From Escherichia phage Turkey3: a DNA stretch of 64,000 nucleotides. Positions 37,328 through 49,061 of this stretch are shown one piece after another. The DNA is taken from sequence record PQ471515.1; one strand, 5' to 3'. Both the position numbers and the translations under genes were made by a program. The first letter of the stretch is position 1; each line of letters begins with the position of its first letter. The notes under the pieces are model-generated. The model was not told where the DNA came from. It did no database searches and saw only the letters and a program-made list of their open reading frames with translations.

Positions 37328-37666
37328 ATGGAACAACATTTTGAATTAATTAATAAGGTATCATTTTATGTAGTATCGTTAATTTGGGTGTATTACATGT
37401 TTGGTTACATTATTGCATTCTTCCGATACACGACCTTGTATCAACGCATATACTACGATGCACCAATTTCATTTTTGATGTTCTGTGCATGTACGTGGGG
37501 GATAATTGAAGCACTGGTATGTGGATATAGTACGGACGAATTAAATCTCGTATCGGTGTTGACATTACTAACAATTGCTACTATGATAGCTACAGTTCCG
37601 ATATTTTTGCTCTTTAAACTGCTTCATCGCATCGATGAGTGGCGTAATAAAATCCCTGAAAAGTAA
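37328..37666 (+). CDS. three-helix membrane protein, family member 1
   Basis: 112 aa; three hydrophobic segments; basic C-terminal tail RIDEWRNKIPEK. Confidence 0.65.
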   Translation: MEQHFELINKVSFYVVSLIWVYYMFGYIIAFFRYTTLYQRIYYDAPISFLMFCACTWGIIEALVCGYSTDELNLVSVLTLLTIATMIATVPIFLLFKLLHRIDEWRNKIPEK

Positions 37667-37669
37667 GGA

Positions 37670-38017
37670 TTGATAATGATTTTTTACACTAATGCGTTTG
37701 CTTATGCCGTTGCATCAATCTACATTGTGTACTTCTTATTTGGTGGAGTACTGTACTTCTTTAAGTACAAAACATTGTTTAACCGAATGTATCCAAATCA
37801 TCCAATTGTAGTAGTACTTTTGATGATTTCTGTTGCTCACATCATTGTAGAAACAATAATGGGTATCAGTGCAGTACATTACAGTCTAGGTACTATTGTA
37901 ATTATTACTATGATCATCGCATACATTTTAGTAATGGGTTCTGGTTTATTTGGGAATGTAGCAATGAAAATGTATAATCGAATCAAAACATTACGTGATA
38001 ATCTACCGGAGCGTTGA
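37670..38017 (+). CDS. three-helix membrane protein, family member 2
   Basis: 115 aa; tail RIKTLRDNLPER. Confidence 0.65.
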   Translation: MIMIFYTNAFAYAVASIYIVYFLFGGVLYFFKYKTLFNRMYPNHPIVVVLLMISVAHIIVETIMGISAVHYSLGTIVIITMIIAYILVMGSGLFGNVAMKMYNRIKTLRDNLPER

Positions 38018-38018
38018 G

Positions 38019-38363
38019 ATGTATAATTTAAATTTAATATCATATATCATAACAACACTGTTTACTTTCTATGCCTTTGTTGGTATACTCCTACTGTACT
38101 TTAAATTTTATAAACTCTTTGACCGTTTTTATCCGTCATTAGAACATGAATTCTTATTAGTGATGTACATCTGTCTAACGTTTATGTCTACATTTTTCAC
38201 TGCATCTGATGGTATCATTGGTATTAAAGCTGAAGAACCAAATGGGAGTACGCTTGTTGCCTTTATTCTGGTAGGATTTTTCAGTACTTATATTACCTTT
38301 ATTTCAGGATGTACCGTGATTGATTATCTTGTGAAATTACGAGATAAAATGCCAAATCGATAG
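38019..38363 (+). CDS. three-helix membrane protein, family member 3
   Basis: Trimmed to ATG after GGAG; tail VKLRDKMPNR. Confidence 0.6.
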   Translation: MYNLNLISYIITTLFTFYAFVGILLLYFKFYKLFDRFYPSLEHEFLLVMYICLTFMSTFFTASDGIIGIKAEEPNGSTLVAFILVGFFSTYITFISGCTVIDYLVKLRDKMPNR

Positions 38364-38372
38364 GGGATTGCT

Positions 38373-38630
38373 ATGTTTGCATTGCGTAATAAAAACACAA
38401 AAGAGATTCTATGTATCTCAACAGTATGGGATTGTGCAGGAAGTGAAATGATTCTCGAAGAAGGTTCAGGTGATTGTGTTTATGTTGTTCAGGATCGTCG
38501 CGAACTGGAATCATTACTTGACGAATTTAATGCTGGTGGAAATCCTAAAAGTACTCAATTCCCTGAGATCAGGAATCCAGCACCACCAGGCTCTTATGAA
38601 ATTCTACAACTGTGGGAGATGGATAAGTAA
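38373..38630 (+). CDS. hypothetical protein
   Basis: 85 aa; AGGGGA RBS. Confidence 0.55.
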   Translation: MFALRNKNTKEILCISTVWDCAGSEMILEEGSGDCVYVVQDRRELESLLDEFNAGGNPKSTQFPEIRNPAPPGSYEILQLWEMDK

Positions 38631-39010
38631 TGCGACAAATGCACAAAGTAACCGAGCTAAACAAGCGTCTGATTAAACAATCAATGTTTGAGGATAAAGA
38701 GTCTTACTATAACTTCAAACGTGCTGTAGAGGCTGCTATCCACATTCAGAAGCTTAAAGATAGTGGATGTATTATTCTCGAAAATGGTTCTGACGTTGTT
38801 ACTGATGACTTCAGTGTAGCGTTTGATGTTTCACCTGATGGTTCGCTATCAATGCCACGCTTAGGGACTGGTGACATGACTGTGTGGGTAGGTTTCACTA
38901 TGGGGAATGTACCGGGCACGGTGTATGTAGATGATGCTGAGTTGAAAGAAAGCTTCAAAAACTTATCGCATCTTGAACCACAATACGCACATGAAATGAA
39001 TTTATTTTGA
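38630..39010 (+). CDS. hypothetical protein
   Basis: 126 aa; TAATG overlap. Confidence 0.6.
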   Translation: MRQMHKVTELNKRLIKQSMFEDKESYYNFKRAVEAAIHIQKLKDSGCIILENGSDVVTDDFSVAFDVSPDGSLSMPRLGTGDMTVWVGFTMGNVPGTVYVDDAELKESFKNLSHLEPQYAHEMNLF

Positions 39011-39011
39011 G

Positions 39012-46960: not shown

Positions 46961-47307
46961 TGTTTGAATCTTATCTTGAGTTTTTAAAGAGTAGTTCTGT
47001 TGCACATTCAATTGCAGGGATTATTCTAACAGGTTATGTAACATTTTGGGTAGTTATGTTTCTAGGATGGTATTTTAAACGACAATTCTATAAGCGTAAT
47101 GGTGAAGATTTTATGAATTCTTTCGTTAATCAATCGTTGTTTGCATCAACATTGATAGCATGTATTGTAGCAACACTCACAGGAAAGGTACTGCCAGCAT
47201 TCTCCGCAGTTTACGGTACATTGGGTATGATATGTGTAGTTTTTTACTTGATCATTAAACTTTGTTGTGTTATGATTGACCTTCGAAACAAGATACCGGA
47301 GGAATGA
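46960..47307 (+). CDS. three-helix membrane protein, family member 5
   Basis: 115 aa; tail DLRNKIPEE. Confidence 0.65.
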   Translation: MFESYLEFLKSSSVAHSIAGIILTGYVTFWVVMFLGWYFKRQFYKRNGEDFMNSFVNQSLFASTLIACIVATLTGKVLPAFSAVYGTLGMICVVFYLIIKLCCVMIDLRNKIPEE

Positions 47308-47642
47308 TGGAATATTTTTTACACTTACTGCCGTGGTATATGAAAGTTAGTACTATGTACTATATTCTTAGTGCTGGATTCTACTTTCTGATGTGGTTCT
47401 TCAAACGACCAATTTCAGTATTCATCTCTGATAACATGCTGCAATTAAAATTACACGCATGGTTTTTTATGGCGATGTTTATGCCTATTATTCACTACTC
47501 AATGATTAGTAGAGGTTTACGTTCTAATGGTGAACCAATTATATTAGTATTCTATTGGGGTTCAACTATTGCATATGTAAGTTTGTTGTTGATCCCAGCC
47601 GTTCATAAATTACGTGCTAAAGTTCCTGATGCGAGGTACTAA
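47304..47642 (+). CDS. three-helix membrane protein, family member 6
   Basis: 112 aa; tail KLRAKVPDARY. Confidence 0.65.
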   Translation: MMEYFLHLLPWYMKVSTMYYILSAGFYFLMWFFKRPISVFISDNMLQLKLHAWFFMAMFMPIIHYSMISRGLRSNGEPIILVFYWGSTIAYVSLLLIPAVHKLRAKVPDARY

Positions 47643-47956
47643 TGGATATCTTAACATTGATTTACACGTTGTATTCATTCTATTTTATTATGTGTTGGGT
47701 TGGATTTTTATTTGTACTGAAGATGTTTGATTATGTTGAAAAACAGATAAAAGAATTTTGTATTCCTTTTATTGGGTCAACCATTATTAGTATTACTTGT
47801 TTGTATTATTTGGTATGTGATCCACCTGATGATACAGCTATGATTGATTTCATGTTATTGCCAACAACTGTTATTTTTTTATGTAGTCTGATGCCACCGA
47901 TTAGCCGTGGACTAACTGAATTTAGACGCAATCAAAAGCGTAAACGAGGGATGTGA
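47642..47956 (+). CDS. three-helix membrane protein, family member 7
   Basis: 104 aa; tail EFRRNQKRKRGM. Confidence 0.6.
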   Translation: MDILTLIYTLYSFYFIMCWVGFLFVLKMFDYVEKQIKEFCIPFIGSTIISITCLYYLVCDPPDDTAMIDFMLLPTTVIFLCSLMPPISRGLTEFRRNQKRKRGM

Positions 47957-48324
47957 TGGAAATTGCACTTATTATATTAACTGCTATGTTGTTTATTAGT
48001 ACAATTGTTATTATTGGCAAGTTCTTCTGTGTATCCTTCTTGGAAACCGTATACGATGAAATTGCTGATGATTATGAATTACATGCGGGATTTTTTACTA
48101 CGTATTGGATTAGTTTATTACTACTTATCACTGTATGGATTTTACATATATTCAAATGGGGTATGGTAGATGGTGATCCAGTACTGGCAATTATCTGTGT
48201 AGTGTTTGGTCTACTCGGTGGTGCTGTCCATAATCTGATGGTAATTTGGCAAACCGTACAATATGTATTAGTTCCACATTTTCAGAGAATGCACCAAAGC
48301 ATCAAATACCGCAAACGAGGATAA
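47953..48324 (+). CDS. three-helix membrane protein, family member 8
   Basis: 123 aa; tail SIKYRKRG. Confidence 0.6.
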   Translation: MMEIALIILTAMLFISTIVIIGKFFCVSFLETVYDEIADDYELHAGFFTTYWISLLLLITVWILHIFKWGMVDGDPVLAIICVVFGLLGGAVHNLMVIWQTVQYVLVPHFQRMHQSIKYRKRG

Positions 48325-48325
48325 C

Positions 48326-48688
48326 ATGAATAATATTGAATTATCTTTTATTGGTCAATTAATGGTAATGGCGTATACATTTATCTTCTCACTGAATGCA
48401 TTCGTGTGCATTGGGAAGTACTTCCATAAGCGACCATTATCAAATATATATGATGTAATACAAAGGAGATATAGTCCAGCATATACTGTGTTGAGTACAG
48501 CATTCAATTTTGGTTTTATTCTAATGCTGGTTTCATTATTAACATCGAGTTCGAATTTTATAACATTTGGTATTATGGTATGTTCACTAACACTGTGTGT
48601 GGTTATTCTCTGTGCATCCGTTGAGTTGCTGGCATGGATGTATAATAAGATTTCCGAAATCCATGAGCGTTTAGGTAAGAGGAACTAA
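48326..48688 (+). CDS. three-helix membrane protein, family member 9
   Basis: 120 aa; GAGGA RBS; tail ERLGKRN. Confidence 0.6.
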   Translation: MNNIELSFIGQLMVMAYTFIFSLNAFVCIGKYFHKRPLSNIYDVIQRRYSPAYTVLSTAFNFGFILMLVSLLTSSSNFITFGIMVCSLTLCVVILCASVELLAWMYNKISEIHERLGKRN

Positions 48689-48689
48689 A

Positions 48690-49061
48690 ATGAGTTATCG
48701 TGAAATATTTTCGATCATTACTATTATTGTGTTTAGTTTAGGTTCTTTGATTTGGTTATTGTATTACTTCTGTGTAACCCCAGTATATAATATGCTAAAT
48801 TCAGTTCGCTCTGATGTTGGTATTGTTTCTTTTATTATCTTCATGGCATATTATATGCTAAGTATCACAGGTTTGGTTTCGGTTGTTATCTTTGACCTTG
48901 GACCGAATCAAGATGGCATGGAGATGTGGGAATTGATAACGATGTTTGCATGTATGATACCTGCATTTGGTGTATGTGCTGGTGTATTTTATGGGTTGTG
49001 TAAAGGTGTGAACTACTTAAAAAATATCCACAATACTATTCGTAAAAAACGTATGTTATAA
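48690..49061 (+). CDS. three-helix membrane protein, family member 10
   Basis: 123 aa; GAGGAA RBS; tail NTIRKKRML. Confidence 0.6.
   Translation: MSYREIFSIITIIVFSLGSLIWLLYYFCVTPVYNMLNSVRSDVGIVSFIIFMAYYMLSITGLVSVVIFDLGPNQDGMEMWELITMFACMIPAFGVCAGVFYGLCKGVNYLKNIHNTIRKKRML

Follow-up and report, generated by a model that had tools for sequence, protein, structure and literature searches.

Phages are known to encode small early membrane proteins. T4 Imm has about 83 amino acids (aa) and two transmembrane domains (TMDs); Cor and Llp are lipoproteins of the outer membrane. Here, we analyzed ten small membrane protein genes in a 64,000-nucleotide stretch of Escherichia phage Turkey3 (sequence record PQ471515.1; the whole stretch is referred to below as the window), whose products, in contrast to Imm, have 104 to 123 aa and three TMDs. 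The genes lie in two tandem arrays, array A (A1 to A3) and array B (B1 to B7), which together cover about 3.4 kb, and profile comparison indicates that they belong to one divergent family, characteristic of the RaK2-like jumbo phages of Enterobacterales. Most jumbo phage genes have no known function, and phages of the Asteriusvirus type are used therapeutically. The window matches the Asteriusvirus jumbo phages of Escherichia coli (121Q/PBECO4 group) with up to 99% identity, and the array genes are hypothetical in every matching Asteriusvirus record.

The initial annotation had placed ten plus-strand open reading frames (ORFs) of 104 to 123 aa at these positions. All of them are present, and the sizes are borne out when measured with corrected starts. 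The listed TTG or GTG starts of A2, A3, and B5 are probably too far upstream; the next ATG (37676, 38019, and 47956, respectively) is the better choice, having in each case a Shine-Dalgarno (SD) sequence 9 to 11 nucleotides (nt) upstream and agreeing with the annotated 121Q ortholog. The ten genes are listed below, with their nonsynonymous (dN) and synonymous (dS) divergences where they characterize a gene; clusters 1 and 2 are the subgroups described in the next paragraph.

37328..37666, + strand: A1, 112 aa, tail WRNKIPEK; PHROG 19285 at 1e-48; dN/dS 0.16 to 0.20
37676..38017, + strand: A2, corrected ATG, 113 aa, tail LRDNLPER; PHROG 19285 at 4e-49; dN/dS 0.10 to 0.16
38019..38363, + strand: A3, corrected ATG, 114 aa, tail LRDKMPNR; dN/dS 0.29 to 0.39
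46622..46960, + strand: B1, 112 aa, cluster 1, tail RAKIRGDF; PHROG 19454
46960..47307, + strand: B2, 115 aa, cluster 1, tail LRNKIPEE
47304..47642, + strand: B3, 112 aa, cluster 1, motif LMWFFKRPIS, tail LRAKVPDARY
47642..47956, + strand: B4, 104 aa, separate subtype, tail RRNQKRKRGM
47956..48324, + strand: B5, corrected ATG, 122 aa, cluster 2
48326..48688, + strand: B6, 120 aa, cluster 2, fast-evolving, dN 0.19 to 0.28; without PHROG hit
48690..49061, + strand: B7, 123 aa, cluster 2, fastest-evolving, dN about 0.3; PHROG 27618

Most paralog pairs have less than 30% identity, and pairwise BLASTP was significant for A1-A2 (6e-13), A2-A3 (1e-7), and B1-B2 (8e-4) only. Eight of the ten window proteins match their own PHROG at an E value of ≤1e-46, A3 matches weakly (1e-3), and B6 has no match. 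The matched groups are 19285, 19454, 19046, 27396, 33258, 26405, and 27618, all of unknown function, and 16874 ("membrane protein"); the set is thereby split into seven families of unknown function that are linked by weak cross-hits only. The proteins are the same, but what PHROGs treats as seven or eight unrelated families is here described as one family with a conserved array order. A profile of each ortholog group was built with sequences of eight relatives; every profile was compared with every other one, and profiles with reversed columns provided the null for membrane composition. Eighteen of the 45 real profile pairs scored above the null maximum of 20.3 (hhalign scores of 56.6 for A1-A3, 37.9 for A2-A3, 48.1 for B2-B3, 38.2 for B5-B7, and 32.6 for B5-B6), giving a cluster 1 (A1 to A3 and B1 to B3) and a cluster 2 (B5 to B7) and leaving B4 unlinked. 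In a second round, members from other genera and from metagenomes were added to the profiles. Cluster 1 then matched cluster 2 (95.3%, E value of 2e-8, 105 columns; null, 20 to 21), and cluster 2 matched B4 (94.8%, E value of 5e-8, 101 columns; null, 15 to 16), so that B4 is joined to the family only through transitive cross-genus profile evidence. As a specificity control, each cluster hidden Markov model (HMM) was run against every six-frame ORF of the window (366) and of the complete 121Q genome (1,295). In either set, the best nonmember matches of each cluster HMM were the members of the other cluster; no other small ORF with multiple transmembrane (TM) segments scored, and neither the window nor the rest of the 121Q genome yielded a further family member. 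Together, the profile data argue that the ten genes are a single divergent family; the term paralogous, used in the initial annotation, stands at the level of cross-genus profiles, although pairwise similarity reveals it for three pairs only. The proteins are already known in databases as hypothetical or "putative membrane" entries, and the family is not mentioned in the genome papers of fEgEco12, Sharanji, UE-S1, Muenster, RaK2, CBB, and phAPEC6. That they form one ancient, ordered array specific to the clade seems not to have been recognized before.

The shared architecture proposed at the outset holds across the set. Hydropathy showed three hydrophobic 17- to 19-mers in each of the ten proteins, the weakest being those of B3 (1.31 to 1.86), whose ortholog in Klebsiella phage Muenster has been independently annotated as "TMHMM: 3 TMDs; N-out, C-in." The number of lysines and arginines was 6 to 10 in loop 1 plus the C-tail and 0 to 3 in the N terminus plus loop 2, again in all ten proteins. 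By the positive-inside rule, this distribution predicts one topology throughout, with a periplasmic N terminus and with loop 1 and the C-tail in the cytoplasm, and curators annotated the same topology for five of the eight Muenster homologs. The AlphaFold2 model of A1 (predicted local distance difference test score of 74.5) has helices at residues 2 to 31, 47 to 67, and 74 to 107 and a short helix in loop 1 (residues 35 to 41). Cluster 1 proteins have W[FY]FK[RK] where TM1 ends and LRxK[IL]P[ED] as a C-terminal motif, both of them on the predicted cytoplasmic face, with F32 and R106 invariant in the alignment, and even the remote members retain LW[YF]FK[RK] after TM1 and [LF]Rx[KN][IL]P[EG] at the C terminus. 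Their counterparts in cluster 2 are a juxtamembrane GKFFC after TM1 and the tail [FI]H..I..K[KR].

A basic C-terminal tail, often LRxK[IMV]P[ED], had also been attributed to the whole set. The motif is found in A1, A2, A3 (as a PN variant), B2, and B3 and is absent elsewhere; B1 ends in RAKIRGDF, and B4 to B7 have other K/R-rich tails. The net charge of the last 15 residues ranges from +1 to +5, with the exception of B2 (−1). Part of the signature has another origin. The genes are packed so that starts abut or overlap the preceding stops, as initially described (gaps inside the arrays of −4 to +9 nt), and at 49 of the 52 member junctions in seven phages, the SD-like motif of the next gene lies within the last codons of the upstream gene. 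Since the ribosome-binding site is placed there, the R/G/E-rich ends (…KRG, …RGD, …ARY, and …KRN) are partly dual-coding. Where the SD comes from the PE of the motif, 8 of 14 PE tails have the rare codon pair CCG-GAG, against a background in which CCG makes up 9% of proline codons and GAG 27% of glutamate codons; in A2, these codons carry the SD of A3, and in B2, CCG-GAG-GAA doubles as the GGAGGA SD of B3. The LRxK[IL]P core, on the other hand, is a protein-level feature, because it lies upstream of the SD and is kept where the SD follows the stop, as in A1. Tails shaped in this way by overlapping ribosome-binding sites call for caution with "conserved motifs" in tightly packed phage operons. 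From the junctions, we infer that translation of the genes within a set is coupled and that the products are made in roughly constant ratios.

The dN/dS ratio was 0.10 to 0.40 in 28 of 30 ortholog comparisons (ten genes against three diverged relatives), the two exceptions being B2 and B3 in comparisons with very low divergence. These values indicate that purifying selection acts on all ten ORFs and that they are genuine genes. They also bear on the suggestion that the ORFs are nonfunctional remnants or annotation artifacts of an AT-rich genome, for which the splitting of one member in 121Q could be quoted; given this selection and the conservation of genes, motifs, and ribosome-binding sites in four lineages, such an explanation is hardly credible and can be regarded as already largely refuted. 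Identity within ortholog groups was highest in TM1 and cytoplasmic loop 1 (0.61 to 0.64) and lowest in TM3 (0.45), and no periplasm-specific diversification was seen. Against a single relative, dS varied along the array from 0.013 to 1.49, a range so wide that it points to recombinational mosaicism.

In order to delimit the family, we used several searches. A word-indexed search of 5.8 billion proteins returned 17 clusters, and an exhaustive HMMER search of 1.84 billion representatives returned 31 clusters at an E value of ≤1e-3 (56 to 200 aa, mostly 100 to 120 aa). With tblastn, we retrieved 45 phage records, all of them jumbo phages of Escherichia, Salmonella, Klebsiella, and Erwinia, and a scan of IMG/VR with the B3 alignment yielded 121Q and RaK2 only. 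Judging from these searches, the family does not extend beyond the RaK2-like jumbo phages of Enterobacterales. Homologs in phi92, hinted at by "Phi92_gp231/233" notes in ph0011, were sought by tblastn with B1; none was found, and the notes were treated as annotation-tool artifacts.

To compare gene order, every member in seven phages was assigned to its best-matching window paralog. B1 to B7 proved to be strictly colinear, one-to-one orthologs across the sampled Asteriusvirus phages, including JNE01 and A4, where most members have only about 30 to 40% identity. In Muenster, the order of types is B2, B2, B1, B3, B4, B5, B7 plus one more, and the ten members of Erwinia phage Hallingskeid comprise five cluster 1 types, a B4-like type, three cluster 2 types, and one more; fENko-Kae01 has fewer members. 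The best-conserved subtype is B3, with its Muenster ortholog at 1e-24. Local changes are superimposed on this order. B1 is duplicated in 121Q and ph0011, and B4 is duplicated in JNE01 and Turkey5, and array A of A4 is reduced to one gene (A2 and A3 are absent). In JNE01, an ORF within array A (L001, 2967-3320) was considered as a member and rejected, as the alignment showed an unrelated, soluble, Lys-rich protein inserted there. In 121Q, the B4 ortholog is split into two overlapping ORFs, gp228/gp229 (L003, 10985-11300), which reflects either a sequencing error or pseudogenization by a frameshift; if the split is real, B4 would be individually dispensable.

Copy number thus varies locally among relatives by duplication and loss, but there was no lineage-specific burst, and the order of subtypes was retained. 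This matters for the initial annotation when taken literally, as a lineage-specific expansion of rapidly diversifying effectors, that is, a recently expanded arsenal of independent membrane proteins caught in an arms race. The great divergence of the paralogs would suit it, as would the fast evolution of B6 and B7 (dN of 0.2 to 0.3), the recombination implied by the mosaic dS, and the duplications and losses just described. However, the orthologs are colinear and one to one in Asteriusvirus and keep their subtype order in other genera, dN/dS is well below 1, and variability is not concentrated on the periplasmic face. Because of these three observations, we consider such an arsenal unlikely and the array, as far as its sequence tells, not a recent arms race-driven burst but an old one, with occasional gain and loss. 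Ten copies are well above the usual phage load of one kind of small membrane protein, and the tenfold expansion is unusual, as claimed, for phages at large. It is less exceptional in the RaK2-like clade, since these phages are generally paralog rich (about 10% of RaK2 gene products are paralogs [PMC3622015]) and an array of RCC1-like genes adjoins array B.

Regarding expression, both arrays lie in units headed by predicted promoters of the sigma-70 consensus type, which are part of a composite element, GGGTTGAC-TTCG-GTCAGCCC-TTTTTG-c-TATAAT. This element is a terminator-like hairpin, with the −35 inside its 5′ arm, followed by an extended −10, and the plus strand has nine copies of it in the interval from 21.4 to 45.7 kb (0.02 expected). 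Apparently, it partitions the early region into short units with overlapping termination and reinitiation. The control elements are as follows.

21444, 29922, 33516, 34296, 36559, 40856, 41579, 42963, and 45723, + strand: sites of the composite element, GGGTTGAC-TTCG-GTCAGCCC-TTTTTGcTATAAT
36559..36591, + strand: composite hairpin plus sigma-70-type promoter (GGGTTGACTTCGGTCGGCCC-TTTTTGc-TATAAT), promoter scan 11/12, extended −10; heads the array A unit
45723..45755, + strand: composite hairpin plus promoter; heads the unit of the nucleoside triphosphatase (NTPase) gene and array B
46564..46592, + strand: second promoter-like site, TTGACA-17-TACTAT, directly before B1, with a GTACTA...TAGTAC inverted repeat in the spacer
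49067..49093, no strand assigned: palindromic hairpin with a 12-bp stem, resembling a terminator on either strand; separates array B from the convergent RCC1-like gene

The element at 45723, upstream of the NTPase gene, is kept in 121Q, JNE01, Hallingskeid, and fENko-Kae01, and the promoter-like site before B1 is kept in 121Q and JNE01. The hairpin after B7 shares its palindrome core with the inverted repeat before B1, and these sequences could be an operator for a phage regulator. In CBB, a related jumbo phage, the equivalent region, rich in RpoD-like promoters, has been assigned to early host takeover genes (PMC5259590). Transcription of both arrays would, on the promoter consensus, be early and by host RNA polymerase. 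In the array A promoter unit or just upstream of it, two plus-strand ORFs (35939-36190 and 36618-37031) have signal peptide-like N termini (MFKYVLFSLVLF… and MLKVIFRSISSLLLMISSVCYA…), so that envelope-directed products may be coexpressed with array A.

Searches of the family against Pfam, NCBIfam, PADLOC, PDB (sequence profiles), and BFVD (folds) gave nothing above noise, the only PADLOC match being a 2TM effector model at an E value of 0.07 with B6. Members are not marked as structural or as detected by mass spectrometry in the annotations of 121Q and fENko-Kae01. The arrays sit in a long same-strand run of small genes, and in the close relative vB_Ec-M-J, exclusion genes annotated as Imm-like and Cor-like are present in the same run, as are denV and HNH endonuclease genes. 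Our preferred, if still tentative, reading is that the family consists of early, translationally coupled, nonlytic accessory factors of the inner membrane, most plausibly concerned with exclusion or with interference with membrane-based host processes. The products would insert into the host inner membrane and, as nonstructural and nonlytic accessory factors, condition it for the phage, with the exclusion of superinfecting phages or a block of membrane-based host responses as the most likely roles. The different paralogs may address different membrane targets, the divergent TM2 and TM3 giving individual specificity, while the conserved motifs of the cytoplasmic face would mark a shared interaction.

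Several points weigh against this reading. The early timing is deduced from promoter consensus only, and the exclusion or takeover role is deduced from architecture, timing, and neighborhood rather than from homology. The strong conservation of subtypes and order, together with the lack of extra periplasmic variability, fits poorly with a classical arms race exclusion arsenal. Other TMHMM topologies are annotated for three of the eight Muenster members, and loop 1 of B5 and B7 is atypical and nonbasic. No match to the Imm family was obtained in Pfam, and the window ORFs at the positions of the genes annotated in vB_Ec-M-J as "immunity to superinfection" did not score with the family HMMs.

The architecture raises the question of lysis. 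To our knowledge, ten to eleven holins in one phage would be unprecedented. Still, the size, the three TMDs, the N-out/C-in topology, and the charged C-tail are those of class I holins, and the proteins might be holins, pinholins, or antiholin-type lysis-timing proteins serving a membrane-anchored endolysin of the signal-arrest-release (SAR)-like type. The endolysin of the clade (121Q gp532) does have an N-terminal TM domain (PMC5259590), and the RaK2 genome paper reports neither a T-type holin nor an RI antiholin in that phage (PMC3622015). The map of 121Q points elsewhere, as the arrays (105,829-106,864 and 113,623-116,404) are not in a lysis cassette beside endolysin or spanin genes but about 140 kb from the lysozyme gene gp532 (254,191-255,117). 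Moreover, the promoters ahead of the arrays are of the early, sigma-70-consensus type, no holin model matched in Pfam (E ≤ 1), PHROGs, or NCBIfam, and a holin and a lysozyme have been reported for fEgEco12, whose array genes are labeled "hypothetical." A function of this kind is therefore very improbable.

The gene immediately upstream of array B offers a further alternative.

45784..46554, + strand: AAA/P-loop NTPase gene, 256 aa; Pfam AAA 23.8 bits, cutoff 21.2

It directly precedes array B in all four RaK2-like lineages, within the same promoter-to-terminator unit, and the paralogs could be the subunits of one hetero-oligomeric inner-membrane complex, possibly together with this NTPase. The conservation of subtypes and their order across genera agrees with a complex, as does the tight translational coupling, which is typical of stoichiometric complexes, and the shared motifs of the cytoplasmic face could dock a common partner. 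On the other hand, array A is apart from both the NTPase and array B, and changes in copy number are tolerated (the B1 and B4 duplications, A4 without A2 and A3, the split B4 in 121Q, and the fewer members in fENko-Kae01). Besides, more than 1,300 other phages have NTPase homologs without the array. Linkage of the two as a general rule was rejected for this reason, T2 and Vibrio phage BX-1 among them having no family member after the gene, and the adjacency in the RaK2-like lineages may be mere synteny. We regard a hetero-oligomer as possible, if rather doubtful, and the more specific proposal that seven to eleven paralogs and the NTPase form, in fixed proportions, a multisubunit inner-membrane machine or scaffold specific to RaK2-like phages as unlikely. 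Were it true, the machine would be a previously unrecognized kind of phage-encoded complex, e.g., a platform that protects or organizes the infecting genome or one for early membrane remodeling. The PhiKZ early-vesicle system was discarded as an analogue, its paralogs being soluble inner-body proteins.

The order of the array has been kept since before the Escherichia, Klebsiella, and Erwinia jumbo phages diverged, and such long retention suggests a real role at the host inner membrane, apparently early in infection. With two deletable cassettes and two sharp motifs, the family is also a compact entry point to envelope handling, superinfection, and membrane-based defenses.

The neighborhood contains other small ORFs with hydrophobic segments and other repeated genes. 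In the same-strand run that holds the arrays, at least eight small ORFs that are not members of the family have three or more such segments.

18019-18456, 18453-18878, 27920-28162, 28221-28547, 29002-29385, 31693-31929, 33718-33981, and 39858-40109, + strand: nonmember small ORFs with three or more hydrophobic segments

Two of these eight probably correspond to the vB_Ec-M-J "immunity to superinfection" genes. The ORF at 39858-40109 (83 aa, C terminus VWNLFWTWFVFF) is kept in the sampled Asteriusvirus relatives, and a similar three-TM ORF of 80 aa, with the C terminus VLNGAWIWAIWF, is present in Muenster. Further along, a plus-strand ORF of 432 aa (41654-42952) has five tandem repeats of ~80 aa (…KKTTEQFIKDAKEKRTDIDF.YSKVNY…GEF.ITP..FL.GSGHP.RGG…) followed by a unique C-terminal part, and its size differs among relatives. 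Convergent to array B, an array of RCC1-like paralogs (about 375 aa) extends on the minus strand from 49098 to about 64000; vB_Ec-M-J has at least 13 copies, and in phAPEC6, eleven RCC1-like genes have been described, some of them in the virion proteome as "DNA condensation protein." Hallingskeid has the same adjacency to array B, and so, probably, does fENko-Kae01, whose convergent genes of ~380 aa are annotated only as hypothetical. Just beyond the RCC1-like array, 121Q has a further, third array, in which about 17 genes of ~60 aa stand in tandem (gp249-265; L019, 32358-36194; record 131,358-135,194), with a counterpart in ph0011; it probably falls outside the window. A plus-strand ORF of 216 aa at 50300-50950 has an N terminus that resembles, by eye, that of 121Q gp233. 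In 121Q and relatives, gp233 directly follows B7, while the window counterpart is found past the first RCC1-like gene, a position that points to local rearrangement at the array boundary. An outer-membrane lipoprotein after the array, as seen in Muenster, was considered as a conserved feature and dismissed, because 121Q gp233, at that place, is neither a lipoprotein nor homologous.

Three described groups resemble the family in part. The RCC1-like genes are likewise tandem, same-strand, clade-specific paralogs in the same genomes, but they encode soluble proteins of about 380 aa of the beta-propeller type, some of them reported in the virion proteome, whereas the products studied here are small, membrane embedded, and apparently nonstructural. 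Class I holins of the lambda S105 type share the size (about 100 to 125 aa), the three helices, the N-out/C-in topology, and the charged cytoplasmic C-tail; they differ in that our family matches no holin model, has ten copies in two arrays far from the endolysin gene, and is preceded by early-type rather than late promoters. T4 Imm and Sp, Cor, and Llp are similar in being small, nonstructural, and envelope located and in being encoded among the accessory or early genes of large virulent phages. There is no homology to them, however, and they are single genes, while the family described here forms ordered arrays of multiple paralogs.

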